Below, piece after piece: positions 840 through 19,451 of a stretch of DNA of 32,000 nucleotides (positions are counted from its first letter, which is position 1; each line of letters begins with the position of its first letter). Source of the DNA: Halomicronema hongdechloris C2206. GTDB taxonomy: Bacteria > Cyanobacteriota > Cyanobacteriia > Phormidesmidales > Phormidesmidaceae. The stretch spans positions 2,910,001-2,942,000 of the forward strand of contig NZ_CP021983.2 of the NCBI RefSeq assembly GCF_002075285.3, written 5' to 3'. The notes beneath the pieces were generated by a model. It saw only the letters and a program-made list of their open reading frames with translations, searched no databases and was not told the origin of the DNA. A program made the translations under genes and the position numbers.

Positions 840-840
840 A

Positions 841-871: not shown

Positions 872-927
872 GGTGATTGATAACCTCAATAACGTCTTCG
901 CTTTTAAGGGGGAAGGGGTAAATAACC

Positions 928-1650: not shown

Positions 1651-2298
1651 TTAGTCGCCATGGGCCGCTAGCACCCGCCGCGCCGTCGCTGCATAGGCTG
1701 CGACGCGAGGAATCCCTGGAAACTCCTGGGAGATTGCCAGCACTTCTCGGGCCAAGGCCGTGGAGGTCTGCCGCTCCGGCACCGCCTGCAGATAAAAAAT
1801 ACTCAGGTTAAGCAGGGTCATGGCCACATCGGGCAAATAGGCCCGCGGATTCTCCTGGGCTAACTGGCGTCTAATCCCCAAGGCTTCTTCATAGCTGGCC
1901 TGGGCGGCGCTGAGTTGATTTTGATCCGCTTGCAAAATCGCCAAATTGTTCAGGGTCATGGCCACATCGGGCAAATAGGCCCGCGGATTCTCCTGGGCTA
2001 ACTGGCGATGGCTCGTCAGTACCTCTGAATAGAGGACAGTGGCTGGCTCGAAACAGTTGTGGTTCTGTAAGAACACCGCATACTCGAACAGAGCCGTCGG
2101 GGTGCGGGCCGCCTCTAGGGCGGTGTCGAAATACTCACAGGCCTGTTCAAAGCGCTGAGGCTGGTCGTAGAAGGTGGTCCAGAGGCGGGCCTTGACTAGA
2201 TACTCATCGGCGATTTGGTGGCGGCTGCGGGCAATCTCGGCTTTTTCCTGGTCCAGTTGCTGATCTCGTTCCAGCAGGCGGCTCAGGTCCTGGGCCAT
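1651..2298 (-). CDS. TPR-repeat protein; 3' part of a longer reading frame (1651..2631) interrupted by an in-frame TAG
   Basis: It carries two near-identical TPR-type helices (RQLAQENPRAYLPDVAMTLNNLAILQ / RQLAQENPRAYLPDVAMTLLNLSIFY) with 34-aa-like A/L/Y periodicity. My translation shows the same frame is open from ATG 2629-2631 down to 1651, apart from one TAG at 2557-2559. There is no ATG/GTG/TTG between that TAG and 2298. Confidence 0.7.
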   Translation of the reverse strand: MAQDLSRLLERDQQLDQEKAEIARSRHQIADEYLVKARLWTTFYDQPQRFEQACEYFDTALEAARTPTALFEYAVFLQNHNCFEPATVLYSEVLTSHRQLAQENPRAYLPDVAMTLNNLAILQADQNQLSAAQASYEEALGIRRQLAQENPRAYLPDVAMTLLNLSIFYLQAVPERQTSTALAREVLAISQEFPGIPRVAAYAATARRVLAAHGD

Positions 2299-2633
2299 CT
2301 CGGTGGTGTTTAAGATGGCATCGGCTTCGCGAAATTGCCCCTGGTCGAAGTAGGCCTTGGCTTGGGCCAGGCGTTCGGTGTCGATCTCAATGCGAGTAAA
2401 GGTCTCGTATAACCGGAAGACGTTTTCCTTAAAGCTCTCTAGCTGCTGCTCCAGGTCTTGCAGGGCGGCCCCGGCCTTAAGGGCCTGCTCCGGTTTGCCG
2501 GTGGCTTGGTAGTACTCAATCAGCTCCTGCTTTTCGGCAATCCGCCTGACCAGGTCCTAATAGTCCAGGGACTGATAGACGAATTGGGCATTCTCAATGG
2601 TGCCGATATGGTAGGTCTTGGTGTCCCCCATGA

Positions 2634-3284
2634 TCACTCAAACCTTGCACTATCAATCTTGTCGATGTTGTAGGTCTTGGAGCTGTCGTTGATGCTGCTG
2701 CCCTGGATGTCTTGGTAAACCTTGTTGCCGTCGCCGGTGACCGTTGCCGTGGGGCCAGGTCGCGCCTCTGAACCAGCCGTTTCATCCACCGTTGGACTCA
2801 GGTGGATGAACCCGTTAGCGGCCAGCTTCTCTAGCTGATTGCCGAAATGCTCCCGCAGCCCCTCGATGGTGTGATATTCCGTCTTGTAGTGCTGCAGCTC
2901 TTTCAAGGTGTCTTCGAAGGCCCAGAGGCTTTGCAGCTCTTCTCGATTCGTGGTGGTGGGCGGCGTCTTGAAGTAGGTGAAGATAAAGGGCTTCTGGGTG
3001 GCTGAGAACTGACCGAAGGCCTGACGGAACTCCTCTGCCGTGTACTTGCCCACCTTGTTGTAGGCCAGCAGCACGAAGAGGTCGCAGCTGCGGATGGCCC
3101 GGTTATATTCGCTCTGCAGGCCCCCAGGGGCCATGGCGTCTAGGAAGTCTTCCCAGATGTCGAGGTGCAAGAAGATGCCGCGATCGAACCAGGCTTTGCA
3201 CCTGCGATAGATGAAGATCTCAAACTGTTCTCGGTCTGCTTTCAGCTCCGATGAGGAGGCCAAGAATAGGGTGATTTTTTGCAT
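2634..3284 (-). CDS. TIR-like / DUF4062-like (flavodoxin-fold STIR-type) domain protein with low-complexity C-terminal linker
   Basis: MQKITLFLASSSELKADREQFEIFIYRR...GIFLHLDIWEDFLDAMAPGGLQSEYNRAIRSCDLFVLLAYNKVGKYTAEEF...KPFIFTYFK. This is the beta-alpha-beta pattern (hydrophobic strand + SS/T, acidic helix, 'CD-hydrophobic4' strand) of TIR-like N-terminal modules fused to TPR/STAND proteins in cyanobacteria. The assignment is by motif memory, not by search. Confidence 0.6.
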   Translation of the reverse strand: MQKITLFLASSSELKADREQFEIFIYRRCKAWFDRGIFLHLDIWEDFLDAMAPGGLQSEYNRAIRSCDLFVLLAYNKVGKYTAEEFRQAFGQFSATQKPFIFTYFKTPPTTTNREELQSLWAFEDTLKELQHYKTEYHTIEGLREHFGNQLEKLAANGFIHLSPTVDETAGSEARPGPTATVTGDGNKVYQDIQGSSINDSSKTYNIDKIDSARFE

Positions 3285-3337
3285 GGGCCAAGGGGGGGCA
3301 TGGCAATGCCTCCGTTACAACCCATGAGTAGCGTTGA

Positions 3338-3374
3338 GCGTTGCCCGGAATGACGAGATGTGTTTTCGCGGTAG
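3338..3374. repeat. Partial copy of the MITE-like element right arm seen at 7461-7500
   Basis: gcgttgcccggaatgacg...ttcgcggtag compared with gcgcttgcccggaatgacgg...cttgcggtag at 7461-7500. Confidence 0.5.
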
Positions 3375-3599
3375 CCCGGAGCGTAGGTCACTCACGGGCA
3401 CGATATGACAATTTGCAGCGGCGGAAACGATCTGCGCTCCGGGCTCTGAGAGATCAAGTCTTCGGAACGGTGAAGTTGTGCGTCGGCAGAGCACCTTGAA
3501 TAGCAATCAATCACCTTTGTGCCGTCTACACCAACACAGTGTTAGACCTTTCCGCCGTCACTAACTATGATTTGTAGAGACAACTCTAGGAATTGAGGC

Positions 3600-4790
3600 A
3601 TGGATGATCAGGCGCTATCAGCGCTTCTTAGGGATCTTGAATCTGATAGGGTAGAGCGCAAAGCCTCAAATTCAGATGGGAAGAAAATAAGGCAAGCAAT
3701 TTGCGCTTTTGCCAACGACCTGCCGAACCATAAACAACCAGGCGTTCTGTTCATAGGAGTCAATGACGACGGCACCTGCGCTAATCTGCGTATCACAGAT
3801 GACCTTTTACTAAATCTATCCAGCATACGTTCTGAGGGAAAAATTCTCCCCTTTCCTGTCTTGCAGGTAAATAAGCGAGTGATTGATGATTGTGAGATGG
3901 CTGTGATTATCGTAGAGCCCTCAGATGCTCCTCCAGTTAGATTTGATGGGCGTACCTACATACGAGTTGGCCCTAGACGTGCAATAGCTACACCTGAAGA
4001 GGAACGCCGACTAAACGAGAAAAGACGTGCAAGAGACTTACCGTTTGATTTACGCCCTTTTGTTTCTGCCACTATCAAGGATCTAAACTTAGAGGGATTC
4101 CAGCGTGAGTACTTAGCATCCGCACTTGCACCCGATGTGTTAGAGGAAAATCAAAGATCTATAGAGCAAAAGCTTATCTCCCTAAGATTTATGACACCAG
4201 AGCCAAGTGCTTATCCGACCAGCTTAGGGATCTTGGTTGCAGGAAAAGATCCACGACAATTTGTGCCAGGGTTTTATATACAGTTTGTTCGCTTTGATGG
4301 TGTGGACTTGACTGCCCCTATTCGGGATCAGAAGGATATCAGCGGTAGCCTGATGGACCTGTTACGTTACATGGATGAAGTATTACAAGCCAATATTTCA
4401 ACGGCCACTGACATCAAAACGCAGTCTGTTGAAATACAACAGCCAGATTATCCAATTACTGCCTTGCAGCAACTTGTACGTAATGCAGTCATGCATCGCT
4501 CCTATGAAGAAACACATGCTCCGGTGCGAGTCTATTGGTTTCAGGATCGAATAGAGATCCAAAGTCCAGGTGGTTTGTTTGGACAAGTAAATCGACGTAA
4601 TTTTGGTCAAGGTGTTACTGACTACCGTAATCCTCATTTAGCAGAAGCTATGAAGAATCTTGGCTATGTTCAGCGTTTTGGGATTGGCATACCCACAGCC
4701 CAGAAGGAACTGAAAAAGAATGGGAATCCACCCGCAGAATTTATTATTGAAGATTCATATATTTTGGTCATGGTTAGGAGGAAACAGTGA
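3600..4790 (+). CDS. AlbA_2 (Schlafen-like) N-terminal domain + HATPase_c_4-like C-terminal domain protein ('ATP-binding / putative DNA- or RNA-binding protein')
   Basis: The N-terminus LESDRVERKAS...IRQAICAFANDLPNHKQPGVLFIGVNDDGT is the 'E.ktlEfK...i.ktivAFANt.GG.l.iGV.d.G' AlbA_2 signature. The C-terminus has LVRNAVMHRSYEETHAPVRVYWFQDRIEIQSPGGL...YRNPHLAEAMKNLGYVQRFGIGI, the HATPase_c_4-type 'NA..HRdY......i.i....drieI.nPG' box. Sampled lines give lower GC (35-43%) than the flanks. Confidence 0.8.
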   Translation: MDDQALSALLRDLESDRVERKASNSDGKKIRQAICAFANDLPNHKQPGVLFIGVNDDGTCANLRITDDLLLNLSSIRSEGKILPFPVLQVNKRVIDDCEMAVIIVEPSDAPPVRFDGRTYIRVGPRRAIATPEEERRLNEKRRARDLPFDLRPFVSATIKDLNLEGFQREYLASALAPDVLEENQRSIEQKLISLRFMTPEPSAYPTSLGILVAGKDPRQFVPGFYIQFVRFDGVDLTAPIRDQKDISGSLMDLLRYMDEVLQANISTATDIKTQSVEIQQPDYPITALQQLVRNAVMHRSYEETHAPVRVYWFQDRIEIQSPGGLFGQVNRRNFGQGVTDYRNPHLAEAMKNLGYVQRFGIGIPTAQKELKKNGNPPAEFIIEDSYILVMVRRKQ

Positions 4791-5800
4791 GCGCGCCGAT
4801 CATTGCTTTCTTTAACAATAAAGGAGGTGTCGGAAAAACATCTCTTGTTTATCATTTAGCTTGGATGTATTTTGACTTAGGTCTTCGGGTTTTAGCCGCA
4901 GATTTAGATCCTCAGGCGAACTTAACATCGGCTTTTTTAGATGAGGACCGCCTAGAACAGGTTTGGGAAGAGGAACAGGGTTTTAACACTGTTTTTCGGT
5001 GTGTTAGGCCTTTGCTCAGGGGAATCGGTGATCTTGCAAATCCAGAATTAGAATCAATAGATGACGGATTAAATCTTTTGATTGGTGACTTGCAGCTTTC
5101 TGGATTTGAAGATGAGTTATCATCTCAATGGCCAGACTGTCTAGACGGAAAGGAAAGAGCATTCAGAGTAATCTCTGCCTTCTGGAGGCTCCTATCCAAG
5201 GCTTCGGCAAGCAGCAAGGCAGACATTGTTCTGATAGATCTTGGACCCAACTTGGGTGCCATTAACAGAGCCGCTCTGATATCTGCAGATTATGTCGTTG
5301 TTCCGCTTTCACCCGATCTATTCTCATTGCAAGGGCTGAAGAACCTAGGACCTACTTTGAGACGGTGGCGAGAGGAATGGAAGGAGCGGATTCCTAAAAA
5401 TCCTGCTCCAGACCTCATGTTACCTGCAGGAAATATGCAGCCTATTGGATATGTGATTCTGCAGCACGGAGTTCGATTCGATCGACCGGTGAAAGCTTTT
5501 CAGAGATGGGTAGAAAGAATTCCAAATGTCTATCACTCTGATGTTGTTTACACAGAAAATGATAATGTTATTGATTTATCAAAAGACTCCAGCCGTTTGG
5601 CACTAATTAAGCACTATCAGAGCCTCATGCCGATGGCTCAAGCCTCTCGCAAACCAATTTTTCACCTGAAACCTGCGGATGGAGCCATTGGCGCTCATGT
5701 GGCAGCGGTTCAGAATGTATATTGGGATTTTAGAGAGTTAGCTCAGAAAATAGCCATCCGTGTTGGGGTGGACATACCTAGTACCGAAAGGCAGAAGTGA
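4787..5800 (+). CDS. ParA/MinD-superfamily ATPase with extended C-terminal region (337 aa)
   Basis: It has the deviant Walker A FFNNKGGVGKTSLVYHLA, then AADLDPQANLT and IVLIDLGPNL (Walker B-like). Its GTG start at 4787 overlaps the upstream TGA (GTGA), and AGGAGG at 4775-4780 lies 6 nt upstream. Confidence 0.85.
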   Translation: MSAPIIAFFNNKGGVGKTSLVYHLAWMYFDLGLRVLAADLDPQANLTSAFLDEDRLEQVWEEEQGFNTVFRCVRPLLRGIGDLANPELESIDDGLNLLIGDLQLSGFEDELSSQWPDCLDGKERAFRVISAFWRLLSKASASSKADIVLIDLGPNLGAINRAALISADYVVVPLSPDLFSLQGLKNLGPTLRRWREEWKERIPKNPAPDLMLPAGNMQPIGYVILQHGVRFDRPVKAFQRWVERIPNVYHSDVVYTENDNVIDLSKDSSRLALIKHYQSLMPMAQASRKPIFHLKPADGAIGAHVAAVQNVYWDFRELAQKIAIRVGVDIPSTERQK

Positions 5801-5906
5801 GAAGGCAGAAGGCAGAAAGGGAATTCCATGTCACATCAGGGTTTCTGCTTTAGCAAATAGGTGAGTTACTTATACCGCAAAGTACTAAGGCCTTGATCAA
5901 GAGTCT

Positions 5907-6473
5907 TTAACGAATTTGCAGCCAGCCAAAGAGCTTGCCGACGGTGAGGGATAGGGCGGCGGCAAAGGGAGGCACGGGCAGCACATCATCGGAGGACTCT
6001 AGAGAGGTGAGGCGTTTGTCGGGATCGTAGATTTGCACTAACCGTTCGCCAGGGTCGATGAGCCAGCCGAGCTGGCAACCGTGATCCAAACAATGGAGGA
6101 TGTTACTAGCAACGCGGGTGGAAGATTGATCCGGGCTCAGGATTTCGATAGTCCAGTCGGGATGAGCGCTGAAGGTGTTGGCGATGCTGCCGTCTTCATT
6201 AACGGGGAGGCGTGCCCACTGGAATACAGCAATATCGGGAACAATGGAGCGTCCACTAAACGTGCAGCGTAGTTCGGGCAGGGCTAGGGCAATCTGGTCA
6301 TCTTCTGTGGCGGTGTTGATAGCGCTCATTAGCTTCTGCTGTAGGCGACTATGCTGACCCTGGGGCATGGGTTTTTGGATGATCTGTCCATCGATATATT
6401 CGCGGGCAGGTTTGGTCTCTGGCTGTTGCAGAAACTCTTCCAGGGTGATGGATTGAACAGGCGTTTGCACCAT
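5907..6473 (-). CDS. Uma2-family (DUF820) restriction-endonuclease-fold protein
   Basis: ITLEEFLQQPETKPAREYIDGQIIQKPMPQGQHSRLQ...PDIAVF...PDWTIEILSPDQS...KILHCLDHGCQLGWLIDP is the typical Uma2 pattern. The start is taken at the internal ATG (MVQTP). Confidence 0.85.
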   Translation of the reverse strand: MVQTPVQSITLEEFLQQPETKPAREYIDGQIIQKPMPQGQHSRLQQKLMSAINTATEDDQIALALPELRCTFSGRSIVPDIAVFQWARLPVNEDGSIANTFSAHPDWTIEILSPDQSSTRVASNILHCLDHGCQLGWLIDPGERLVQIYDPDKRLTSLESSDDVLPVPPFAAALSLTVGKLFGWLQIR

Positions 6474-6617
6474 CTGCCATTCCCGTCGGCTGGGTACATC
6501 AAATCCTAGATTCAATTTACAGCGTTTTTGAGGCTAGTGGGGTGCACGGATGACCATGAAACCCCTGATATCAGGAGGTAGGCTGTACCTCACCCAGCCA
6601 GGAAATGCTGTAAGAGA

Positions 6618-6872
6618 TCAGGCGGTTGTTTGCTGGGGCAAAGTTTGAGCTAACTTGAGCAGGCCATCAATCGACAGGTCCTCGTCGATGGCAGGCCAGT
6701 GAATGCCATAACCAGAGGGGGAGACTTGATAGAGTTTGCGCTCGGCGTCCGAGGCATTTGCAAGGCGGCTGGAGGTTTGGGCAATGGGCAAACGGACAGT
6801 TTGATCATCGACGGTCAAGATCATCCAATGAGCTTCAAAATCGAGGCTTTGGACATTATGATGCTTATTCAT
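6618..6872 (-). CDS. DUF2442 domain protein
   Basis: HWMILTVDDQTVRLPIAQTSSRLANASDAERKLYQVSPSGYGIHWPAIDEDLSIDGLL is the DUF2442 C-terminal signature (G.GIHWP.lDEDlS..gLL). ATG 6870-6872 overlaps the upstream stop (ATGA). Confidence 0.8.
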   Translation of the reverse strand: MNKHHNVQSLDFEAHWMILTVDDQTVRLPIAQTSSRLANASDAERKLYQVSPSGYGIHWPAIDEDLSIDGLLKLAQTLPQQTTA

Positions 6873-7123
6873 GATTGGCTTCCAAAGTGAGTATTCCAAG
6901 CATCCACAATTTCATCGAAATGTTGCAAGATGATTTTGCGCACTTCACGAGTGTCGCGGCGGGACAATCTGTAGGCATAGGCTTCGCGGATATCGTACGA
7001 CTCCACGTCGAGCCAGTACTTACATTCTGAATCACCTTTTTGAGCATGAATGTGGATGGGTTCATTGCCTTCGTTAGAGTAAAAGTGAAATCGCCACCCT
7101 CTTAGATAAAGAACGGTCGGCAT
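6869..7123 (-). CDS. DUF4160 domain protein
   Basis: MPTVLYLRGWRFHFYSNEGNEPIHIHAQKGDSECKYWL is the DUF4160 N-terminal signature. It overlaps the DUF2442 partner by 4 nt, the usual two-gene arrangement. Confidence 0.8.
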   Translation of the reverse strand: MPTVLYLRGWRFHFYSNEGNEPIHIHAQKGDSECKYWLDVESYDIREAYAYRLSRRDTREVRKIILQHFDEIVDAWNTHFGSQS

Positions 7124-7380
7124 TAGGCTACTGTCTCCGCTACCGTATCTTCTCAAGACGTTCAGGAATTGGCGAGGTAACGATAAACCTCTTCTCGCTC
7201 CTGCTCTGATAATCGCGTAGACCTCGCCCTGAATTCTGGATCGTGCTGCGCTGGGGTTCCCCTCCATCCTCTAGCTCCCTTATGCCCTCCGGGCAGGCAA
7301 AGCCTACGACTCCGCTCAAGGCATGCTTCCTCCCACAAGGGGCGGAAGGAGAACAACGATCTGCTGAGTAGACCTGACTC

Positions 7381-7483
7381 CCGTCATTCCCGCGGCGGCA
7401 GGAATCCAGAGCGTTAACCTTGGCAAGGAAACAGAACGCTCTCTCTGAATTCGGGTGGCGCTGCGCTTGCCCGGAATGACGGG
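7381..7483. mobile_element. MITE-like ~100-bp hairpin element with terminal inverted repeats
   Basis: The ends are CCGTCATTCCCG... and ...CCCGGAATGACGG. Internal arms (ggaatccagag / ctctgaattc) also pair, so the whole unit folds into a long imperfect hairpin. Confidence 0.55.
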
Positions 7484-7527
7484 ACTCTCTCTTGCGGTAG
7501 GTTAGCTGCCTAAGAAAACTGCATTAT

Positions 7528-7610
7528 CGTCATTCCCGTTGCCGCGGGAATCCAGAGCGTCAACCTTGGCAAGGAAACAGAGCCCTCTGCCTGGATTCTG
7601 GGTCGCGTTA
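7528..7610. repeat. Second, right-end-degenerate copy of the MITE-like element
   Basis: cgtcattcccgttgccgcgggaatccagagcgtcaaccttggcaaggaaacaga matches 7382-7435 with a few substitutions. A third right-arm-like fragment (cctgaattctggatcgtgctgcgctgggg) lies at ~7228-7260. Confidence 0.5.
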
Positions 7611-7690
7611 CCCTTCCTCAGCGCTGCCACACCTTAGGTTTACCCTGCCGTCCTGAACCTCACCGTTGATGGCGGGGTCATTCACCGCGT

Positions 7691-7877
7691 CTGACCAAGT
7701 ATTTTATCTATGCAACTAACGATCTGCATTGATGGAATATTGATCTACAGCCTCTAACCAAGATTCCAGTCCATGCGACTAACGATCTGCATTGATGGAG
7801 TATTGGTTCACGGCCTCTAACCAAGTATTGCATCTATGTGATTAACGATCTGCATTGATGGAGTATTGGTTCACGGC
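7691..7877 (+). repeat. Three tandem copies of a 61-63-bp unit
   Basis: The units are 7691-7751, 7752-7814 and 7815-7877. The shared core is ct(c)taaccaag-N-taacgatctgcattgatgga(g/a)tattg(g/a)t(t/c)(c/t)ac(g/a)gc. Confidence 0.85.
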
Positions 7878-8094
7878 GGCGAAGGAAGGTTTCACGAGTG
7901 CAAACAAAGCCTCTACGATGACGGAGAAAGGTTTCATGACTGCGAAGGCCCCTTTCACGGTCGCGCAGGAAGTTTCCAGAGACACAAACAAAGCCGCCAC
8001 GATCGCAAAGAAAGCTTTCAGGGCCGCCGATAAAGCTTCCAGAATTGCCAATAGAGTATTTGCGATCTGCTTGAATTGCATGACAACAGAGTAG
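7855..8094 (+). CDS. Possible small heptad-repeat protein (79 aa); strand ambiguous, since a GTG-started 85-aa ORF covers 7842..8099 on the minus strand
   Basis: Both strands are open across the 21-nt repeats. The plus peptide is amphipathic (AAKEGFTS ANKASTM TEKGFMT AKAPFTV...). The minus peptide is very hydrophobic (LAILEAL SAALKAF FAIVAAL...). There is no clear RBS on either strand. Confidence 0.25.
   Translation: MMEYWFTAAKEGFTSANKASTMTEKGFMTAKAPFTVAQEVSRDTNKAATIAKKAFRAADKASRIANRVFAICLNCMTTE
7879..8067 (+). repeat. Nine tandem 21-nt (7-codon) degenerate repeats, with alternating sub-types (42-nt super-period)
   Basis: gcgaaggaaggtttcacgagt / gcaaacaaagcctctacgatg / acggagaaaggtttcatgact / gcgaaggcccctttcacggtc / gcgcaggaagtttccagagac / acaaacaaagccgccacgatc / gcaaagaaagctttcagggcc / gccgataaagcttccagaatt / gccaatagagtatttgcgatc. 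Confidence 0.8.
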
Positions 8095-8135
8095 GCCACT
8101 GTCTTGTCTAAAGCGTTACCCCATGGCGCATCTGA

Positions 8136-9446
8136 TTAACAGTCCAGGGTTGTCTGCAGTTCCCAGGCGGTAATCTGGCGGGTGTATTCGCGCCAGGCCT
8201 GGTGCTGTAGCTTCAGGTAGGCGGCGGTGAAGTCTGGGCCCATGCGCTCGGGCAGTACGGTGTTCTGTTCCAGATGGCCCAGCGCCTCCAACAAGCTTTT
8301 GGGTAGGGGTTTGACGGTGCCGGGTGGTAGCGGCTCGGTGTACATGTTGTTATCGTGGCGGGGACCGGGATTCCGTTTTTCGGCCATGCCGTCCAGGCCG
8401 GCGGCAATGAGCGCTGCCGGCAGCAGATAGGGATTGGCCGCACCGTCGGCGAGCCGCAGTTCAAAGCGTCCTGGATCGGGGATGCGGATGGTGTGGGTGC
8501 GGTTGTTGCCGCTGTAGCTGAGGGTATTGGGCGACCAGGTGGCGCCGGAGGTGGTCACCGCTGCATTGATGCGGCGGTAGGAATTGACCGTCGGGTTGGA
8601 GAAGGCGCACAGCGCTTCGCCCCCGTGCAACACGCCGCCGATGAACTGATAGGCCAGGGGAGATAAGCCCAGGTCGCCCTCGGCATCGAGAAACAGATTG
8701 ACAGAGCGGTCTGCATTCCACACCGACAGATGCATGTGACAGCCATTGCCCGTGAGGTGAGGGAAGGGCTTGGGCATGAAGGTGGCGCGCAGGCCATGCC
8801 TTTCGGCAATGCTCTTGACCATGTATTTGAAGAAGGCCTGGCGATCGCTGGTCACGAGCGCATGGTCGAAGGTCCAGTTCATCTCGAACTGACCATTGGC
8901 GTCTTCATGGTCATTTTGATACGGTCCCCAACCCAGGAAGGACATGCCGTCGCAGATTTCGCGAATCACGTCATAGCGGCGCATCAGGGCCTGCTGGTCG
9001 TAGCAGGGTTTGGCCTGGCGATCGCGCCCATCGGAGATATCACTACCGTCGGCATTCAACAGAAAGTACTCACACTCCACGCCGGTGCAGACTTGATAGC
9101 CCTGCTCTTTCGCCTGGGCCAGCACCCGTTTCAGGACCAAGCGAGGGGTCTGGGGGATGGGTTGCCCATCCACGTCGTACAGGTCGGCAGGCATCCAGGC
9201 CGCTTCCGGCTGCCAGGGCAGTTGGAACAAGCTGTTGGGGTCGGGAATCGCCAGCACGTCGGGATCGGCGGGCGTCATGTCCAGCCAGGCCGCGAAGCCG
9301 GCAAAGCCGGCCCCATTGGCGGCCATCATGTCGATGCTTTGGGTCGGCACCAACTTGGAGCGCTGCACCCCAAACAGGTCGGTGAAGGAAATGAGGAAAT
9401 AGCGGATGCCTTTGTCGCGGGCAATGTCGGAGAGCGCCTGAGTCAT
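8136..9446 (-). CDS. Glutamine synthetase family protein, ~435-aa GlnT-like (gamma-glutamyl ligase) type
   Basis: The N-terminal beta-grasp is IRYFLISFTDLFGVQRSKLVP. The catalytic-domain motifs are GVECEYFL, NDHEDANGQFEMNW, KPF....GNGCHMHLSVW, NSYRRI and NRT..IRIP. Confidence 0.9.
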   Translation of the reverse strand: MTQALSDIARDKGIRYFLISFTDLFGVQRSKLVPTQSIDMMAANGAGFAGFAAWLDMTPADPDVLAIPDPNSLFQLPWQPEAAWMPADLYDVDGQPIPQTPRLVLKRVLAQAKEQGYQVCTGVECEYFLLNADGSDISDGRDRQAKPCYDQQALMRRYDVIREICDGMSFLGWGPYQNDHEDANGQFEMNWTFDHALVTSDRQAFFKYMVKSIAERHGLRATFMPKPFPHLTGNGCHMHLSVWNADRSVNLFLDAEGDLGLSPLAYQFIGGVLHGGEALCAFSNPTVNSYRRINAAVTTSGATWSPNTLSYSGNNRTHTIRIPDPGRFELRLADGAANPYLLPAALIAAGLDGMAEKRNPGPRHDNNMYTEPLPPGTVKPLPKSLLEALGHLEQNTVLPERMGPDFTAAYLKLQHQAWREYTRQITAWELQTTLDC

Positions 9447-9525
9447 GGTGGATGTGAATAGAAGAGCCGCAGCAGGAGTCCATCCCTAAGCAGCACAATC
9501 TTCCAGTGAGGGCGGCGGCACCGTC

Positions 9526-9539
9526 GTAGCAGACATTAC
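9526..9539. promoter_or_regulatory. NtcA-type box GTA-N8-TAC upstream of the GS-family gene
   Basis: GTAGCAGACATTAC is a perfect GTAN8TAC, ~80 nt upstream of the 9446 start codon. On the minus strand a weak -10-like AAGATT lies ~23 nt downstream. The 6-nt specificity means roughly 8 chance hits are expected per 32 kb. Confidence 0.35.
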
Positions 9540-9640
9540 CAATCTGTCATCGCATCCCTGATTCAGCGGTTGCCATCGGATGTCGAGGCCATCGCCCGAT
9601 AGGCTCCTTTATGGACATAACGTGCACCATTGAGCGCATC

Positions 9641-9856
9641 CTAAATCCAACCGTTGAATGGCATGTCAAGGCGAGTGCGAGGCATGTCAGAGGGATGACA
9701 TAGCTTGTCAGGGCGATTGCCTTGCGATCGCATCTGAAATTCTTCTAGGGGATAGCGCTGCTTGGCAGTGAAGTACTCCTTCACCACCAGGGAAGGGGAG
9801 TAGCAGATATCTCGCGAACCATCGGGCCATTCAATTTGGAAGCGGATTTCAGGCAT
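9641..9856 (-). CDS. MSMEG_0570-family (Nit1C-cluster, nitrogen-starvation associated) small protein; C-terminal third looks aberrant
   Basis: The N-terminus MPEIRFQIEWPDGSRDICYSPSLVVKEYF matches my memory of that family's conserved start (MPE..F.irWPDG....CYSPS.Vv..yf). The tail ...GNRPDKLCHPSDMPRTRLDMPFNGWI does not look like the family. Confidence 0.5.
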   Translation of the reverse strand: MPEIRFQIEWPDGSRDICYSPSLVVKEYFTAKQRYPLEEFQMRSQGNRPDKLCHPSDMPRTRLDMPFNGWI

Positions 9857-9938
9857 CAGCGGGGGCGCAGGTAGATGGATGGGAAAAATTTTAAAATTTG
9901 AACTATGAACTGTGACCTATGAACTGCCAATTTCCCAT

Positions 9939-10223
9939 TCATGTAGACTCCATCAGCAGCTCGTGGTAGTGCTGGACATGCTGCCGGGCAGAGCAGCACC
10001 AACTGTAGTCTACCAGGGCCGCCTGACTACGACTGATGACGCCGATACGATCGCCGTTAACTTTCTGGAGCATGGCTTTGGCGATGGTAGATGGATCGCT
10101 AGGATCGACCCAGAAGGCCTGGTCCCGGTCGAGGAATTCGGTGAAGAGAGCCTAGTCGGAGACGATGACGGGGCGTCCAGATGCGATCGCTTCTAATACC
10201 ACCATACCCCAGCCCTCGGTTAG
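9939..10223 (-). pseudogene. Group-1 glycosyltransferase C-terminal fragment with in-frame TAG
   Basis: My translation is LTEGWGMVVLEAIASGRPVIVSD*ALFTEFLDRDQAFWVDPSDPSTIAKAMLQKVNGDRIGVISRSQAALVDYSWCCSARQHVQHYHELLMEST*. This has the GT1 'EG.G.v.lEA.a.G.PVi.sd' motif. The stop is at 10152-10154 and the N-terminal ~250 aa are absent. Confidence 0.65.
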
Positions 10224-10229
10224 GGTACG

Positions 10230-10396
10230 CTGCCGGGAAACCGGGGTGTTAGAGGAAGGTGCCAGATCGCCCGTTGACGCTTGACGCTTTAGCCATAAGT
10301 CAATCGTGTTACGGCTGATTTGGAAGGCAGTACTGGCCTCACTCTTCGTCATCCCATTGAGTTCAATGGCGTCAATGACCTTCTGGCGTAAGTCTA
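10230..10396 (-). mobile_element. IS630-family transposase N-terminal HTH fragment
   Basis: YSLDLRQKVIDAIELNGMTKSEASTAFQISRNTIDLWLKRQASTGDLAP has the typical IS630/Tc1-type N-terminus (YSLDLRqkV......G.s...a...f.vs..tv..W.kr....G.l.p). No DDE domain follows. Confidence 0.6.
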
Positions 10397-10561
10397 GGCT
10401 GTAGGGCTTCGGCTCTCTTTGGGGTGGCGCTTGTCATGGAACAGAATGTACCGACGGATCCACTGCACATAGGTTTGCTCGGTGCGGTAGGAGTAGTGCT
10501 TCAGACGAATGGTGTCGCGAACTTGATCAAGCAGCTTCTTAGGACGAGATTCCGGGTGCAT
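10394..10561 (-). pseudogene. Integron-integrase-type tyrosine recombinase, N-terminal SAM-like fragment only
   Basis: MHPESRPKKLLDQVRDTIRLKHYSYRTEQTYVQWIRRYILFHDKRHPKE compares with IntI1 [38 protein letters not shown]. It breaks off after ~50 aa into the IS630 stub. Confidence 0.6.
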
Positions 10562-10643
10562 AGGGCCGAATACCAATAGAGATGGTAAACAAACCTTAAA
10601 CACTCAAGGCGGCAAAGCGGAGGGTTGATTATACTGAATCTTT

Positions 10644-10760
10644 CAGCCTAATCACCCATATAGGGCGGTTAGGCTGACGTATTTCCACCCATACACCCAA
10701 ATAGGGCATATGGGCTGATGTATTTCCACCTAATCACCCATATAGGGGAGTTATGCAGAA
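10644..10760 (+). repeat. Three hairpin-type ~41-bp repeats (possible attI-region recombinase-binding repeats)
   Basis: The units are cagCCTAATCACCCATATAGGGCGGTTAGGctg, then acgtatttccac-CCCATACACCCAAATAGGGCATATGGG-ctg, then atgtatttccac-CTAATCACCCATATAGGGGAGTTATGC. The first unit closes on GTTAGGC (10668-10674). Confidence 0.6.
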
Positions 10761-11021
10761 TAGTTCTCTCTAATAACGAGTTAGCCTGCTGAGATATTGG
10801 TTGGACGTAGAAAAAGCTGATCCCCGGATTGCAATATCCCAAAAACACGTGCCCTTGGTTGGGTTGCCATGCTTGGTCAGTATTGGTTCTTGATTAAGAC
10901 GTGTTTTGAACGTTGTCAATAGGGTATGCCCAAGGTTAGATTTGTTCTAGCTCGTAGAATAAAGGGTGTTATCTACTGCATTTGGGCTGATAGGTAGTGC
11001 TATATAACTTTATAGAGAAAC

Positions 11022-11528
11022 ATGGAAATCATTCCGAAATTTGAAATTGGCACCTTTAAAGGCAAGGTCGCTGGATATAACGAATACAGATTTATCTGTC
11101 GATTATTTATTCCTCCCAATCGAGATGAGGCAACAGTAGTATGGCTTCGTGAAAAAGAAGCTTTAGTACTCAGCACCAGTTTCGAGAAGCCATACTCCAA
11201 GATTATTTTTGCCACAAATAACGACAAGATTATAAGAAGCATTCATCATAAGTATGGAATATCTAAGGTAGATTTAAAGCTTTTGTACACAGAGATTGAT
11301 GCTTTCGATGAAAAGTCGGAAGACGATTTCGAAGAGTTTTATTCTTCAACGGAATATCAAGCTTATGATGATGAATACTATCAAGATACCCAGAGGGAAA
11401 TCCTTGATTATATGACGGATTACTCTAATGCCATGGTTGCATCTTCTGAAAATGGCTGGTTTTATGATGAGACGATCCATTCAAAAAATGAAGCCTTAAA
11501 GTTGGCATTAGAAGAAGATCTTTACTGA
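11022..11528 (+). CDS. Hypothetical protein, 168 aa, acidic Tyr/Asp/Glu-rich C-terminal half
   Basis: This is a clean ORF in a 37-38% GC block (23/60 and 22/60 G+C in two sampled lines). The C-terminal part is DAFDEKSEDDFEEFYSSTEYQAYDDEYYQDTQREILDYMTDY. I recognise no domain. Confidence 0.65.
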   Translation: MEIIPKFEIGTFKGKVAGYNEYRFICRLFIPPNRDEATVVWLREKEALVLSTSFEKPYSKIIFATNNDKIIRSIHHKYGISKVDLKLLYTEIDAFDEKSEDDFEEFYSSTEYQAYDDEYYQDTQREILDYMTDYSNAMVASSENGWFYDETIHSKNEALKLALEEDLY

Positions 11529-11596
11529 TTTAAAGTTCCTAAAGACGACATCAGACAAGTAAATAATCTTGCATATAAACGAGGAAAAATAAATTT

Positions 11597-11890
11597 ATGA
11601 GCGATAAATTATATAATGTCAATAAACTTTCTGCTGAGGAAATTCCTTTTCATAATTACTTTGAGTTGTTGGCATCTGAGTTTGGCCATAAGTATGAGAT
11701 TTGGGTGCGAAATGAGGACTTTGGCCGATTTGTAGCAGTTGGTGTTGTGAACCGAAGCTCAGGAATAGCTGCGACTATTTACTTAAAGCGTGGCGGTGTT
11801 GTGATATCTAATCCATTAAACCAAGAAACAATTGTGAAGATAAGAAGTCATTTGAATTCAGGCGCTAAGGAAGACTTGTGCATTAATTAA
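11597..11890 (+). CDS. Hypothetical protein, 97 aa
   Basis: ATG is preceded by GAGGA 14 nt upstream. It lies on the same strand, 68 nt after the previous stop. I recognise no domain. Confidence 0.6.
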   Translation: MSDKLYNVNKLSAEEIPFHNYFELLASEFGHKYEIWVRNEDFGRFVAVGVVNRSSGIAATIYLKRGGVVISNPLNQETIVKIRSHLNSGAKEDLCIN

Positions 11891-11992
11891 ACACTATATC
11901 TATTGCAGGTATAATTTAAAGGATTTGCAAGGAAATTTTAGCCAGAAATATTAGTGATATTAGAGCTAATTTACATAAAGGATTATTTAGAG

Positions 11993-12511
11993 ATGAGTGA
12001 TATTCCAGTTCAGCTACTTCAGCATCTTGGCAAGCATGGTGTGCGCATGAGGCAATTCCTAAGCGATGATTTCAGCAATATAGATGATTCTCAACGTCGA
12101 GAAATGGCTACAGAAGCTCGCCAAATTACGGCTTGGGCAGCGGCGGCTATCGCACCTATGCCTATACCATTCGCCGATATCTGGACGATTACACCAGTGC
12201 AGATGCTTATGGTTCGGGCTATCGGTAATATTTATGGATACAAAATTGATAGTAAAACAGTTAAAGAGATGCTTGCGGTTATTGGCGGCGGAATGCTTGG
12301 TCAACAAATATGTCTTGCGCTGTTCAAAATTGGCTTACCCGGTGCTGGGGGTTTTGGAGGTGCTGCATTCGTATTTTTCTGGACACATGGTATTGGCAAA
12401 GCAGCAGAACTTTACTTTCAGAGCGGCATGACTGCGACTGCAGAGGAACTTGCGGCAGCACGCAAGGAGGGAATGGAACAAGCAAAAAATGAAACACCGC
12501 GCACTGAGTAA
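11993..12511 (+). CDS. DUF697-like membrane-associated protein (172 aa from ATG 11993)
   Basis: AAAAIAPMPIPFADIWTITPVQMLMVRAIGNIYGYKID...LALFKIGLPGAGGFGGAAFVFFWTHGIGKAAELYF is the DUF697 pattern (PiP.aD...ltpiQ..Mv..Ia.iYG; glycine-rich hydrophobic hairpin; T.aiG). AAGGA lies 13 nt upstream of the ATG. Confidence 0.65.
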   Translation: MSDIPVQLLQHLGKHGVRMRQFLSDDFSNIDDSQRREMATEARQITAWAAAAIAPMPIPFADIWTITPVQMLMVRAIGNIYGYKIDSKTVKEMLAVIGGGMLGQQICLALFKIGLPGAGGFGGAAFVFFWTHGIGKAAELYFQSGMTATAEELAAARKEGMEQAKNETPRTE

Positions 12512-12535
12512 CCAATGGCATAAGGTCGCGGCGCA

Positions 12536-12618
12536 AGCTAACACGTCGTTGGAGCCGAACGGCGAGAGGTTATCAGTCTATATTATGATGCTATCTGCGT
12601 CGGCTCAACTATGACGTT
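12536..12618 (+). other. attC-like recombination site, 3' end (AGGT, 13695-13698) separated by the IS insertion
   Basis: AGCTAAC (R''-like) ... imperfect inverted arms with bulged bases ... GTT|AGGT (R' GTTRRRY once the IS and one TSD copy are removed). The reconstructed length is 87 nt. It begins 25 nt after the DUF697-like stop codon. Confidence 0.55.
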
Positions 12619-12630
12619 GGCACTGTCCTG

Positions 12631-13296
12631 TTAAAGAGTGAGAGACTCAAATCCCCTGGCTAATAGGATTTCAGAGAGCTTCAAGGGGCGCTGAATAAAT
12701 CCCATGGCCATGGCTGGTGTTCTGGCTTTGCCCAAACTCCCATGAGGCCGCACCCAATTGTGAATCAAACGCTGTACATCCAAAGCTCGCTGTAATCCCT
12801 CCACCTGCTTGGCATAGTGATTCTGTCGCCTGCGATAGGCCGTTGCCCGTCGCCTCAAAGCACTGTTGAAGGCTTCGAGGTGATTGGCATGAACCTCGCT
12901 GAGGGCACTGAGGGCCGTCCAAGGATGCTCAACGTTGAGCCACTCTACCCTAGGTTTACCTTGAGAGCCTTTGATCTTGATGGCCACCTCTAGACCCTCC
13001 CGCCACACCTTGCGATAGGGATAGGCGTCGCTGCTGAGGTGGCTCGGCAGATAAACGCTGGCCAGTTTCCACAATGCCTTGCCGTAGCGCCGCTCTCCAT
13101 CGGTAAACCAGCGAATCCATGCACTGGGCTCTGCCCACTGCCAAGCCCGCTGAACTCCCTGTTCAAATAACTCAGCCGCCTTGAGGCCCGCGCTGGCTTC
13201 TAGCCAGTAGCGACTCTTGCGTTCAATGAAGCTAATGGTCCAGCCCTCAGAGGCTGCGGGGGGGAAGGTTTTCACCGACACGGGTGTAGAGTTCAT
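12631..13296 (-). CDS. insB: IS1-family InsB (DDE) ORF, presumably expressed as an InsAB' fusion by -1 frameshift
   Basis: GWTISFIERKSRYWLEA...WFTDGERRYGKAL...HANHLEAFNSALRRR is present. It overlaps insA by 50 nt in the -1 frame. The overlap contains GAAAACCTTCCCCCCC (A4 and C7 runs, ~13257-13275). Confidence 0.8.
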   Translation of the reverse strand: MNSTPVSVKTFPPAASEGWTISFIERKSRYWLEASAGLKAAELFEQGVQRAWQWAEPSAWIRWFTDGERRYGKALWKLASVYLPSHLSSDAYPYRKVWREGLEVAIKIKGSQGKPRVEWLNVEHPWTALSALSEVHANHLEAFNSALRRRATAYRRRQNHYAKQVEGLQRALDVQRLIHNWVRPHGSLGKARTPAMAMGFIQRPLKLSEILLARGFESLTL

Positions 13297-13627
13297 CGCC
13301 TTCTATGGTGACATCTCCGCCTGCCCCGGCAGGCGGGGACCAGGCGGGCAGATGAGAGGATGAACGCTCTTCCCAGGTCGTAATACTGCTAGGTGATGTC
13401 CCCACGACTCTGGCGGCGGCTCTGACGCCCAGCCCTTCGTGTCGAGCATTGAGGGCCATCTCGACGGTGGCTACTGGGGCGCGTAGACGGGCCATGGGGG
13501 TGCCGCTGCGTTCATTGAAGCGACGACCGCAGGTGTTACAGAGATATTGCTGGAGCACTTGACCCGTTTTGAGGGTTTTGGTGCCATTCTTGACGATGGC
13601 TTCACTCTGACAATGGATACAAGGCAT
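13247..13627 (-). CDS. insA: IS1-family InsA (zinc-finger/HTH) ORF
   Basis: MPCIHCQSEAIVKNGTKTLKTGQVLQQYLCNTCGRRFNERSGTP is a CxxC...CxxC zinc finger, followed by an HTH. Confidence 0.8.
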   Translation of the reverse strand: MPCIHCQSEAIVKNGTKTLKTGQVLQQYLCNTCGRRFNERSGTPMARLRAPVATVEMALNARHEGLGVRAAARVVGTSPSSITTWEERSSSHLPAWSPPAGAGGDVTIEGDELYTRVGENLPPRSL

Positions 13628-13850
13628 TGGACCGAAAGGCTTGCTGTATCTAAAGTCTAGCTCTCACTCCATAATCTGACAGTGCCATGACGTTAGGTTG
13701 TTTACCCTTTGGTTGTGGGGCATTCGTCCGCTTATCTGTTGGTGTTTAAGAGGCATTCGGAGAAAGGCTAGATAGTCAAGGTGTAATACCAAGTCTCTAA
13801 AGCAAAGTTATAAATAGAGGAGTTGAAACATGTTTACACCTCTGGGTGGG

Positions 13851-14867
13851 TCAATGGTTGAGTAACGCTGCGATCGCATCTCGGATAAAGGCTTCGTCTT
13901 CCGGGTTTTGATAGGGATTTCCGGCTCGATGGCCCCAGATGGAGGGAATCGGGCGATAGGTGGCCTTGGCAATCTGTTCGGCTTCGGCGGCGCAATCGTC
14001 CGGCGTGAAGTACAGGTCGGTGGTGGCGGGCATCACCAGCGTGTGGGCCTGAATGGTACTCAATGCGTTGGCGGTGTCGCCCTGAAAAACCGGCGTATTC
14101 CCCACATCGCAGCGGAGCCAGGTGTCAATCATGGCGATCAGGTTGTGGGGATCGCGGCGGCGATAATTGGCTTCCCAGCCCCGCAACAGATAATCCTCTA
14201 ACGAGTCATAGCCGCACTGCCGGTAGGGCTTTTCCCGATAGTAAGCCTGGGAGGCGGCCCAACTGGCATAAATGCGGGCGTAGGCCCGATAGCCGCGATC
14301 GGGGATGCCTTCAAAGCGATGCCCGTTCCAGGCGGGATCGGCGGTGAGGGCCGATCGCAGACTCCCCAGAAAAACTTTGGTGTGGTCAGTGGTCTTGGCC
14401 GTGCCACAAATCGCCGCAATTCGCTCCACCCGATCGGCATAGTGTGTCCCCCAGTAATAGGCCTGCTGCGCCCCCATCGACCAGCCGTACACCAGCGCCA
14501 GCCGCTCGACGCCGAAGACCTGCCGCAGCAGCTGTTCCTGAGCCCGGAGGTTGTCGTAGTGGGTGAACCAGACGCCATCTTCGGCCAGGCCACAACGGTC
14601 ATCATTGCTGGGAGAGGTGGACAGTCCATTGCCGAACTGGTTGGCGATGACGATGAAATAGCGCCTGGGATCGAGGATGCGATCGCAGCCAATCAGCCAG
14701 TCGATATCGGGATGCTGGGCCCCGTAGGAGGTGGGATAGAGAATCACATTGCTGCGATCGCTGGCCAGCTCTCCATAGGTCTGATACACCAGCGTCGCCT
14801 CCGGCAGCGTCACGCCACACTGGAGGTCAAACTGGTGGAGCGTGAACGCAGGCGCCGCATCGGTCAT
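13851..14867 (-). CDS. Alpha/beta hydrolase of the homoserine O-acetyltransferase (MetX-like) family
   Basis: NVILYPTSYGAQH..., the nucleophile elbow VYGWSMGAQQAY (GxSxG), and the C-terminal IPSIWGHRAG are present. Length is 338 aa. Confidence 0.8.
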   Translation of the reverse strand: MTDAAPAFTLHQFDLQCGVTLPEATLVYQTYGELASDRSNVILYPTSYGAQHPDIDWLIGCDRILDPRRYFIVIANQFGNGLSTSPSNDDRCGLAEDGVWFTHYDNLRAQEQLLRQVFGVERLALVYGWSMGAQQAYYWGTHYADRVERIAAICGTAKTTDHTKVFLGSLRSALTADPAWNGHRFEGIPDRGYRAYARIYASWAASQAYYREKPYRQCGYDSLEDYLLRGWEANYRRRDPHNLIAMIDTWLRCDVGNTPVFQGDTANALSTIQAHTLVMPATTDLYFTPDDCAAEAEQIAKATYRPIPSIWGHRAGNPYQNPEDEAFIRDAIAALLNH

Positions 14868-15835
14868 GACGCCGCTTGGCCAAACCTGGCGATGATCGAG
14901 CGATTCACGGCGACATAGCCCGGTACCACGTTCTGGAAGTGAGGCGCCAACTCAACATGGGCCCGCGGCAGCTGGTGAAACGGAATCGATGGATACAGGT
15001 GATGTTCCGCATGGAAGGGCATATTCCACATCAAGAGTTTAATGGGCCAGATCGTCAGCGTCGTGCGGGTATTGGTGAGGGGGTCCTCGCCATCGGCACA
15101 GCCCGTATGCTCGGCAATTAGAATGAACCGCAAGATTGGCTGCCCCACCGCCAGCGGCAGCACCCAGTACAGCAGAAACCAGGGCTGACGGAAGATGAGA
15201 GACAGGGCAATGGCGCCGCCATACACCCCCAGCTGCAACCAGGTGGATCGCTGCACGTCTCGATACGCCGCTTCGGGAACGTAGGGCATGTCTTCAAACT
15301 GTCCCGTCGCCAATTGCCAATGACCTTGCACCTTGCCAATCCACCAGGGCATGCCGCTCATCACCCAGAGATAGTCAGCCAGGGTAGTGGGAATCAAATC
15401 TTCCAGCTCCGGATCTTTGCCGTGGAGTTTGGTGTAGCGATGATGCCACTTGTGATACCGCCGATAGAAGGTGCTGTTGTACCCCGAGAGCAGGCCAGCC
15501 ACCCAGCCCACCGTCTTGTTCGTCGCCTCGCTGGCAAAGGCGGAGCGATGGACGCACTCATGTACCGCCGCAAACATGGAGGCCAGGCTGAAACCGTAGA
15601 TCACCAGAGCGGGCAGGGCCAGCGGCCAGTGCCCCCACTGAGTGGCCCAGAGTCCACCGCTCACGGCCATGATGCTGAGATGGCTGACCAGTTGCAGCCA
15701 TCCCTTGGCATCGGAGCGCTGGTTCAGTCGCGTCAACTCAGCCGCCGACAAAATTTGTCGAGGATCGCTCACGCTTGCTTTCGCCGTCATACCCACCGGT
15801 TTCCTCTGCGAACTAAGACGAGTGTGCGTGATCAC
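14864..15835 (-). CDS. Membrane fatty-acid desaturase family protein
   Basis: The three His boxes are HECVH, HKWHHRYT and HAEHHLYP. It overlaps the MetX-like gene by 4 nt (ATGA). The start may instead be the internal ATG at 15790 (MTAKAS). Confidence 0.85.
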   Translation of the reverse strand: MITHTRLSSQRKPVGMTAKASVSDPRQILSAAELTRLNQRSDAKGWLQLVSHLSIMAVSGGLWATQWGHWPLALPALVIYGFSLASMFAAVHECVHRSAFASEATNKTVGWVAGLLSGYNSTFYRRYHKWHHRYTKLHGKDPELEDLIPTTLADYLWVMSGMPWWIGKVQGHWQLATGQFEDMPYVPEAAYRDVQRSTWLQLGVYGGAIALSLIFRQPWFLLYWVLPLAVGQPILRFILIAEHTGCADGEDPLTNTRTTLTIWPIKLLMWNMPFHAEHHLYPSIPFHQLPRAHVELAPHFQNVVPGYVAVNRSIIARFGQAAS

Positions 15836-15919
15836 AATTTATGATCTTAAGCGTGAGAGGCAGCGGCAGGTGTAATCACCGTTACGCTGTAGAGTCGTGT
15901 TGCCGAGGAACCCTGACCC

Positions 15920-18899: not shown

Positions 18900-19451
18900 C
18901 TAGTGGGCATGATCGATATGGGCTCTGAGTTGTCCCCGAATTGCTCCCCCCGGGAATCGGGGATTGTGCACGTTGATGTAAAAGTCCTGCGGGTTATTGA
19001 GAATGCGCTGCACAATGCCAGCCTCCCCAGTGGGGAATTTACCCTCTTCCCCTTCCGTCAAACAGTCACCGGCGTTGCCATCTTCGGGTCCGGCCAGGGC
19101 CGCTACCACCGGACCATTTTCGTTCGGTCCCCCTTCGTGGATATGGGCGGCCATGCCGTCTCCCACCGGCACGGTCTGAATCCCTGAGACCTCAAGCACG
19201 TAGCACAGAGTGGTGGCATCGCCATCGATACCAAAAACATAGGCCTGCCCCGTGCCAGTGGGGTCGCCGACAATATCATCAAGATCTCCGTCCGAGGCAA
19301 CTTCGGCACTGCCATCTAACTGCGTCGTCAAGATGACATTGGTATGTCCGGCCTTGGCATCTTGGGGCAGCAGACTGCCTGCCACCAGTGCTCCTAGTAC
19401 CATACCAAGACTCCACAGCTGACTTCTCATAGGTCTGATGTCCTTATTCAC
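18900..19451 (-). CDS. Secreted CHRD domain protein
   Basis: The signal peptide is MRSQLWSLGMVLGALVAGSLLPQDAKA. The CHRD hallmarks are AAHIHEGGPNENGPVVAAL and FYINVHNPRFPGGAIRGQL. Confidence 0.75.
   Translation of the reverse strand: MNKDIRPMRSQLWSLGMVLGALVAGSLLPQDAKAGHTNVILTTQLDGSAEVASDGDLDDIVGDPTGTGQAYVFGIDGDATTLCYVLEVSGIQTVPVGDGMAAHIHEGGPNENGPVVAALAGPEDGNAGDCLTEGEEGKFPTGEAGIVQRILNNPQDFYINVHNPRFPGGAIRGQLRAHIDHAH

Follow-up and report, generated by a model that had tools for sequence, protein, structure and literature searches.

The window analyzed here is a 32,000-nt stretch of the Halomicronema hongdechloris C2206 chromosome (contig NZ_CP021983.2, positions 2,910,001 to 2,942,000), in which three open reading frames (ORFs) follow one another on the + strand between positions 11022 and 12511 (Table 1). 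The mechanical call for ORF3 begins at a GTG at 11954; the ATG at 11993 agrees with the length of its 172-aa homologs, and with this start the gaps between the genes are 68 nt and 102 nt, as an earlier note on this DNA had described. No terminator is predicted between any of the three. That note, made from the sequence alone, proposed that the genes are cassette-borne and form a system in which a membrane effector is accompanied by two small partners. From comparison with related loci, we consider it likely that the region is one composite integron cassette in a decayed chromosomal integron, made up of an ORF1-ORF2 module and a separately acquired DUF697 gene, ORF3.

The G+C content of ORF1 and ORF2 (36.1% and 37.4%) lies well below that of the flanking host genes, which encode a glutamine-synthetase and a hydrolase (60.6-61.4%, and 73-78% at third codon positions). 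ORF3, at 46.8%, is about 10 points richer than the other two, so that the 37-38% reported earlier for the whole group holds only for ORF1 and ORF2. Set against a host value of about 60%, this composition marks the trio as foreign. The window contains 22 copies of the HIP1 motif (GCGATCGC), where 0.6 would be expected by chance, and the absence of the motif around the trio, which the earlier note had pointed out, extends in the window scan from 10191 to 13869. The mobile-element debris seen on both sides can now be named: a fragment of an integron-integrase gene (intI) and a helix-turn-helix (HTH)/glycosyltransferase fragment on the left, and an IS1-family insertion sequence (IS) on the right.

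Table 1. Features of the cassette region, in window coordinates
Feature	Position	Strand	Details
Truncated integron-integrase gene, N-terminal ~69 codons	10394-10603	-	Pfam Phage_int_SAM_4, E 1.1e-13
Three tandem 41-nt hairpin units, attI-like	10641-10759	+	Repeat family D1 and inverted repeat I6; DNA fold z = -3.9
Left recombination core site GTTAGCC	10780-10786	+	Cassette starts at T10781
Conserved 241-nt leader	10781-11021	+	Promoter-like TTGTCA-18-TAGATT at 10913-10942
ORF1	11022-11528	+	168 aa; identical to XM38_027740
ORF2	11597-11890	+	97 aa; identical to XM38_027750
ORF3	11993-12511	+	172 aa from ATG 11993; 185 aa from GTG 11954
attC	12535-12617	+	R'' GCTAAC, spacer ACGTC, L'' GTTGGAGCCGA; L' TCGGCTCAAC, spacer TATGAC, then GT (first two bases of R')
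IS1-family insertion sequence	12618-13687	-	Terminal inverted repeats of 27 nt: 12618-12644, 13661-13687
Target-site duplicate and remaining R' box	13688-13700	+	R' once the IS is removed: GTTAGGT

A single cassette beside an integron-integrase remnant

The limits of the cassette emerge from comparison with other loci, which are designated here by L numbers. One of them, L003, is 90% identical to positions 10771-12618 of the window except for a single 240-bp deletion, and is unrelated to it past both ends. The breakpoints coincide with both core sites, boxes of the GTTRRRY type that read GTTAGAC at either end of the L003 copy. On the left, homology to L003, L004, and L001 alike begins at 10771-10779. 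Between 10790 and 12534 there is no credible internal attC, the best match having an E value of only 1.2 (6.7 bits) when 9500-14000 was searched, filters off, with the covariance model R1 described below. Because the L003 breakpoints fall at the core sites and no internal attC is present, we assign all three genes to one cassette of 1,836 bp, spanning 10781-12616.

At its 3' end the cassette carries an attC with the R''-L''...L'-R' architecture and bulged bottom strand of integron cassettes (PMC4889954). Model R1 was built from five attC sites, one of them from the window; homologous sites follow genes in L001, L003, and L014. In the alignment of the five, the CTAAC/GTTAG pairing of R'' with R' is present in all five, the GAGC(C/G)G/C(C/G)GCTC pairing of L'' with L' in most, and three pairs show compensatory changes; the bottom strand folds with unpaired bases that form the bulge. 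The window site, itself a training sequence of R1, scores 76.5 bits (E 1.8e-18). Matches outside the training set each lie just 3' of a gene, at L014 4836-4924 (51 bits) and 2456-2545 (27 bits), L001 12432-12519 (39 bits), and L008 1558-1646 (36 bits). We take the box sequences of the window attC to resemble closely those of the aadA7 attC.

The IS1-family element sits exactly inside the R' box of this attC. The N-terminus of its transposase matches NF033558 (IS1 family, E 1.9e-12), and the insertion is bounded by a 6-bp target duplication, TGACGT, at 12612-12617 and 13688-13693. A weak partial match to R1 can still be seen at 13673-13700, where the displaced end of the site lies.

On the opposite side, the intI fragment, the beginning of a tyrosine recombinase gene, reads away from the cassette, as it does in canonical integrons, and is cut off by the HTH/glycosyltransferase fragment (10152-10352, - strand). 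Its best NCBIfam matches are NF011946 (E 2.9e-13) and TIGR02249 (E 2.8e-11), over the first 40-54 positions of the models. A second intI fragment is present on L002. The three hairpin units occupy the place expected for attI, between intI and the cassette; the first carries GCCTAAT...GTTAGGC, the ends of the others resemble these, and the same units recur ahead of the ORF1 cassette in L004 (about 3850-4000). These units may constitute the attI region, although the assignment is putative, since they matched no known element. No Rfam family was found on 9000-14000.

The earlier view that the genes are cassette-borne is therefore borne out, by a single cassette with a bona fide attC beside an intI remnant. 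From this site, however, the cassette would no longer be excisable by IntI, because the integrase is cut to about 69 codons and the attC is split by the IS. Fused cassettes with several genes arise by loss of an internal attC and are described from sedentary chromosomal integrons and integrase-less attC clusters (PMC4889954). The window cassette is like these in its GTTRRRY-type core bounds, and like integron cassettes generally in the divergently oriented integrase gene adjoining it and in the toxin-antitoxin cassettes that fill related arrays. It differs from them in holding three ORFs in 1.8 kb behind a leader of its own with a promoter-like site, and it differs from active integron platforms in being a fossil, with an integrase stub and an IS-split attC. 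The host also sets it apart: integrons are known in the cyanobacteria but are little described in this phylum.

The leader is 88-91% identical across L001, L003, and L004, and even in L005 and L014, whose proteins share only 45-53% identity, the stretch between -90 and -40 can be recognized. Given the promoter-like site in the leader, transcription would be expected to start from a promoter of its own. In the interval 10925-11024, GTGTTATCTACTG can pair with the purine-rich ribosome-binding region (CAGAGAAAC), and a few compensatory changes are present across six loci. The hairpin that would sequester the ribosome-binding site is weak (consensus energy -3.9 kcal/mol), and we do not claim it as an RNA element.

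Elsewhere in the window, HIP1 is also absent from 422-8840, and a low-GC stretch at 3600-5800 (42-46%) encodes a Schlafen AlbA_2/HATPase_c_4 protein and a ParA-like AAA_31 ATPase. At the edge of that stretch lies a second attC-like site (3460-3548, - strand; 27 bits, E 7.7e-5 with R1).

Histories of the ORF1-ORF2 pair and the DUF697 gene

Loci L014 and L015 carry the pair in a more diverged form. There, an ORF1 homolog with 45% identity is followed after 86 nt by an ORF2 homolog with 58% identity (hhalign probability 99.9). Directly 3' of ORF2 stands an attC (69.8 bits), whose R'' shares bases with the stop codon of that gene. About 245 nt upstream of ORF1 there is an R'-like sequence, and the DUF697 gene is absent. 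This arrangement suggests that the ancestral unit was a two-gene cassette with the order leader-ORF1-ORF2-attC. Closer to the window, the ORF2 protein of L003 is 82% identical to that of H. hongdechloris, and in L004 ORF2 is cut after about 35 codons.

ORF3 has a separate and far larger family. The DUF697 affiliation and hydrophobic segments that the earlier note had read from its sequence are upheld by a Pfam match to DUF697 (PF05128) of 38.0 bits, above the gathering score of 27.7 (E 1.8e-9, residues 41-178 of the 185-aa form), and by a simple Kyte-Doolittle scan in 19-residue windows. The scan peaks at 1.34 (residue ~54), 1.71 (~102), and 1.37 (~117), within hydrophobic stretches at residues ~45-70 and 92-130. 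The 111 homologs retrieved are named YcjF family or DUF697 and form a large family of 165-210-aa cyanobacterial proteins. YcjF/DUF697 proteins are inner-membrane proteins with no established role; ycjF almost always lies beside ycjX, as it does in Escherichia coli, and, in many species, near psp operons (PMC3041696). ORF3 shares with YcjF the Pfam match, the PIPFAD box, and the Gly-rich hydrophobic segments, but in contrast to YcjF it is short (172 aa), is cassette-borne, and has no gene for a ycjX-like P-loop NTPase in or beside its cassette. A DUF697 gene has also been found beside toxin-antitoxin genes in an amplicon obtained with primers for Treponema mobile elements (PMC9137128).

Copies of ORF3 without ORF1 or ORF2 occur at 87-93% DNA identity in three loci, L006, L007, and L009. 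The relatives in L006 and L007 adjoin ychF (on the opposite strand in L006), and that in L009 follows an unrelated gene. The DUF697 gene of L007 still has the last ~26 nt of ORF2 on its upstream side and, on its downstream side, an attC that has collapsed to GCTAAC-TACGAC-GTTAGC. These remnants suggest that L007 is derived from the fused arrangement and lost ORF1 and ORF2 afterwards. The L006 and L007 copies had been considered as a native housekeeping source of ORF3, and this was rejected on account of the same two remnants around the L007 copy. The reverse loss is seen in L003, where the 240-bp deletion has removed the first 72 codons of ORF3 and shifted its frame, and ORF1 and ORF2 persist.

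Two further observations concern DUF697 genes in such settings. In L006 (566-660) and L007 (730-823) the collapsed attC is kept beside a gene 93% identical in DNA sequence to ORF3, and this gene looks like a cassette gene that has settled outside the integron. In Microcystis aeruginosa BS13-10 (L008, 165-1646), a frameshifted DUF697 gene has about 90% protein identity to ORF3 (fragments of 92% and 85%). Downstream of it come two small genes without annotation and an attC, and DUF697 genes may therefore be recurrent cassette cargo in cyanobacteria.

We propose the following order of events. The starting point would be an older cassette of two genes, ORF1-ORF2 behind the conserved 241-nt leader; a complete counterpart is found in the distantly related array of L014 and L015. 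Through loss of the ORF2 attC, a DUF697/YcjF gene that brought a promoter-like site and an attC of its own would then have become joined to ORF2, and after the fusion ORF3 would function, or decay, independently of its two neighbors.

Several points weigh against this interpretation or against parts of it. Both genes of the pair also occur singly, which weakens the claim that they are obligate partners: ORF1 stands without ORF2 or ORF3 in four loci (L001, L002, L005, and L010, where for L002 and L005 "alone" means alone within 300-400 nt of sequence), and ORF2 homologs are found without ORF1 on two plasmids, discussed below. The relatives of ORF1 come from about ten loci, most of them short metagenomic contigs. 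The structure models of both proteins are of low confidence, and no function was assigned from searches. The intI gene survives as its N-terminus only, so that the IntI-specific C-terminal region is absent, and five sites, the window site among them, served to define the attC family, rather than the curated model of IntegronFinder. Finally, the ORF2 remnant in L007 implies that the junction between ORF2 and ORF3 predates the H. hongdechloris genome, and past selection for the adjacency of these genes is possible.

Possible functions of the module and its neighbor

ORF1 comprises a basic N-domain (pI 9.0) and the acidic, Tyr-rich C-terminal half that the earlier note had singled out, which has a pI of 4.05 and contains 22 Asp or Glu and 9 Tyr in 73 residues. 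Its homologs are rare: a search of 5.8 billion proteins gave five others, and one of 1.84 billion gave seven representative clusters. Searches of Pfam, NCBIfam, PADLOC, and PHROGs returned only sub-threshold noise for ORF1 and nothing above cut-off for ORF2, in keeping with the note's failure to recognize a domain in either. An AlphaFold2 model of ORF1 from six sequences is of low confidence overall (pLDDT 53), with an alpha/beta N-domain at 70-80, and Foldseek found nothing in the PDB at E <= 0.001. Matches of ORF1 to LAGLIDADG proteins were non-significant (E about 0.1, template modelling score 0.2) and were dismissed as generic alpha/beta similarities, as were the EF-G and BMC matches from the Foldseek searches of the two proteins. 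Invariant polar residues of ORF1 are few (E8, T65, and K77), which makes a binding role more plausible for it than an enzymatic one; neither a nuclease motif nor a recognizable DNA-binding motif was found in it.

The settings of ORF1 vary among loci. In L001, a solo ORF1 lies among DUF433/DUF5615, UPF0175/DUF3368, and PIN cassettes. The gene modules of this locus are separated by repeats of a family of 170-275 nt that starts with GTAATCGTAGGGTGG...CCCACC (10538-10813, 11407-11580, 14724-14918, 15623-15894, and 19235-19429); these repeats are not attC-like, and they start exactly where homology to the window ORF1 cassette stops. In L010 (1114-2343, P0124), the N-domain of ORF1 (residues 1-102) is fused to a long pentapeptide-repeat domain that replaces the acidic Tyr-rich tail, and a DUF5677 gene lies upstream. 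The repeats of this fusion member were all that a profile search of PDB sequences with ORF1 matched. A copy of ORF1 with 89% protein and 92% DNA identity is on REBQ01000013.1 (L002/L011), a 3.3-kb contig that also carries an integron-integrase fragment and is binned as part of a Halomonas metagenome-assembled genome; the contig is probably mis-binned cyanobacterial DNA.

For ORF2, all four members tested gave a sub-threshold match to PF20133 (HHL1-like; best E 0.002), and a weak PUA match was dropped, having been seen in one member only. The AlphaFold2 model, from two sequences, has low confidence (pLDDT 58). Foldseek found nothing in the PDB at E <= 0.001, and a profile search of PDB sequences gave no match. 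For neither protein, then, did structure prediction yield a significant fold match. Two scans of metagenome contigs produced no match, and a genome scan again returned only the L002 contig. Viral contigs and GenBank phages held no relatives of ORF1 or ORF2, which leaves a phage or anti-defense origin of the two genes without support.

We suggest that ORF1 and ORF2 form one functional module whose products act together. The likeliest guess is a small, self-contained accessory module in stress response, addiction, or defense, in which ORF1 would serve as a non-enzymatic binding protein and ORF2 as its partner. Only tentatively, the pair may represent an undescribed two-protein module that moves between cyanobacteria as one integron cassette and has a new function in defense, addiction, or nuclease control; ORF1, whose tail gives way to pentapeptide repeats in one relative, would act in it together with ORF2, a small protein also present beside PLD nucleases and a DISARM-like locus.

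A more familiar possibility, though a doubtful one, is that the two genes are a classical type II toxin-antitoxin pair that stabilizes the array, with ORF1, a folded N-domain with a flexible acidic tail, as the antitoxin and ORF2, of about 100 aa, as the toxin. Like the type II cassettes of chromosomal integrons, ORF1-ORF2 consists of two genes in one cassette, preceded by a conserved leader that contains a promoter-like site, and it belongs to arrays dominated by toxin-antitoxin cassettes of the kinds seen in L001. The pair is conserved at 45-58% identity, and the solo copies of ORF1 in several loci recall orphan antitoxins. On the other hand, the family searches revealed no similarity to known toxins or antitoxins, nor was there a structural match, albeit with low-confidence models; the genes lie 68-93 nt apart and do not overlap; and ORF1 has no recognizable DNA-binding motif. 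ORF2, the supposed toxin, is moreover intact on two plasmids that lack ORF1. The survival of each gene alone weakens the case for a classical pair of this kind.

These plasmids bear on another proposal, in which ORF2 would assist or regulate nucleases and ORF1-ORF2 would be a fragment or variant of a nucleic-acid-targeting defense module. On the plasmid of Calothrix PCC 7716 (L012 1-7267), an ORF2 homolog with 50% identity lies 42 nt after a trio of genes encoding a DISARM-like helicase, an MZB (DUF1998) protein, and a PLD protein, and before an SNase gene. On that of Dolichospermum UHCC 0315A (L013 6001-7186), a homolog with 41% identity is followed after 212 nt by a gene for an NgoFVII-type PLD nuclease. 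In both of these DISARM-like or PLD restriction loci the homolog directly adjoins a PLD gene, and no ORF1 or DUF697 gene occurs within 6 kb of either. There are two such loci only, however, and the window cassette contains no nuclease, helicase, or methylase; the L014 cassette likewise lacks a PLD or other nuclease gene. ORF1, for its part, has neither a nuclease motif nor more than a few invariant polar residues, and its LAGLIDADG matches are non-significant. We regard this proposal as unlikely.

It is very unlikely that all three genes constitute a three-component defense or toxin-antitoxin-like system in which a DUF697 membrane effector is controlled by two small proteins. They do share a strand and a cassette with no predicted terminator between them, and the L007 remnant makes the ORF2-ORF3 junction older than this genome. 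Integron cassettes are known to encode phage defense systems (bioRxiv 10.1101/2024.07.02.601719), and the neighbors of ORF1 in L001 and L005 are consistent with arrays rich in toxin-antitoxin and defense genes. ORF3 also resembles the PADLOC candidate PDC-S29 (E 1.1e-6), a likeness confined to the DUF697 core, with residues 54-113 aligned to positions 69-127 of 220. This partial match covers 59 of the 220 model positions, about a quarter, and PDC-S29 is a computational candidate that the single paper naming it lists without demonstrated anti-phage function (PMC11514479). Against such a system stand the neighborhood data, by which it is largely refuted: among the loci compared there is no independent, diverged trio, and the trio recurs only in L003, whose DNA is a copy of this cassette with 90% identity and a broken ORF3. 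The diverged ORF1-ORF2 cassette of L014 and L015 has no DUF697 gene, relatives of ORF3 stand alone and are strongly constrained, with a ratio of nonsynonymous to synonymous substitutions (dN/dS) of 0.09-0.15, and ORF3 differs from its neighbors by 10 points of G+C. The membrane-effector trio of the earlier note thus fails the test of co-occurrence, and what survives of it is the conserved two-gene module ORF1-ORF2.

The scarcity of ORF1 and ORF2 homologs, the decay of the integron, and the frameshifts in the L003 copy might also suggest that the frames arose by chance in AT-rich junk or that the genes are dead, an extremely improbable explanation that conservation already refutes, because dN/dS is below 0.5 in all three genes (0.17-0.49 for ORF1, 0.49 in one pair for ORF2) and full-length, frame-preserving homologs in differing contexts reach down to 41-53% identity. 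By the evidence of such purifying selection, all three ORFs are real genes.

Implications for cyanobacterial integrons

The speculative trio with a membrane effector is thereby replaced by a documented case of cassette evolution, in which a two-gene cassette would have been fused to a second cassette gene and then frozen once the integrase had been lost and an IS had entered its attC. Every stage of the decay can be followed in sister copies from other genomes, among them a DUF697 gene with a collapsed attC beside ychF. The practical lead is narrowed to ORF1-ORF2, an orphan pair kept in two cassette lineages whose proteins are 45-58% identical, and for which the only functional hint is the repeated position of ORF2 beside PLD nucleases, in two loci. 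For the annotation of cyanobacterial integrons, the locus is of use as an example of cassette cargo turning into ordinary chromosomal genes.

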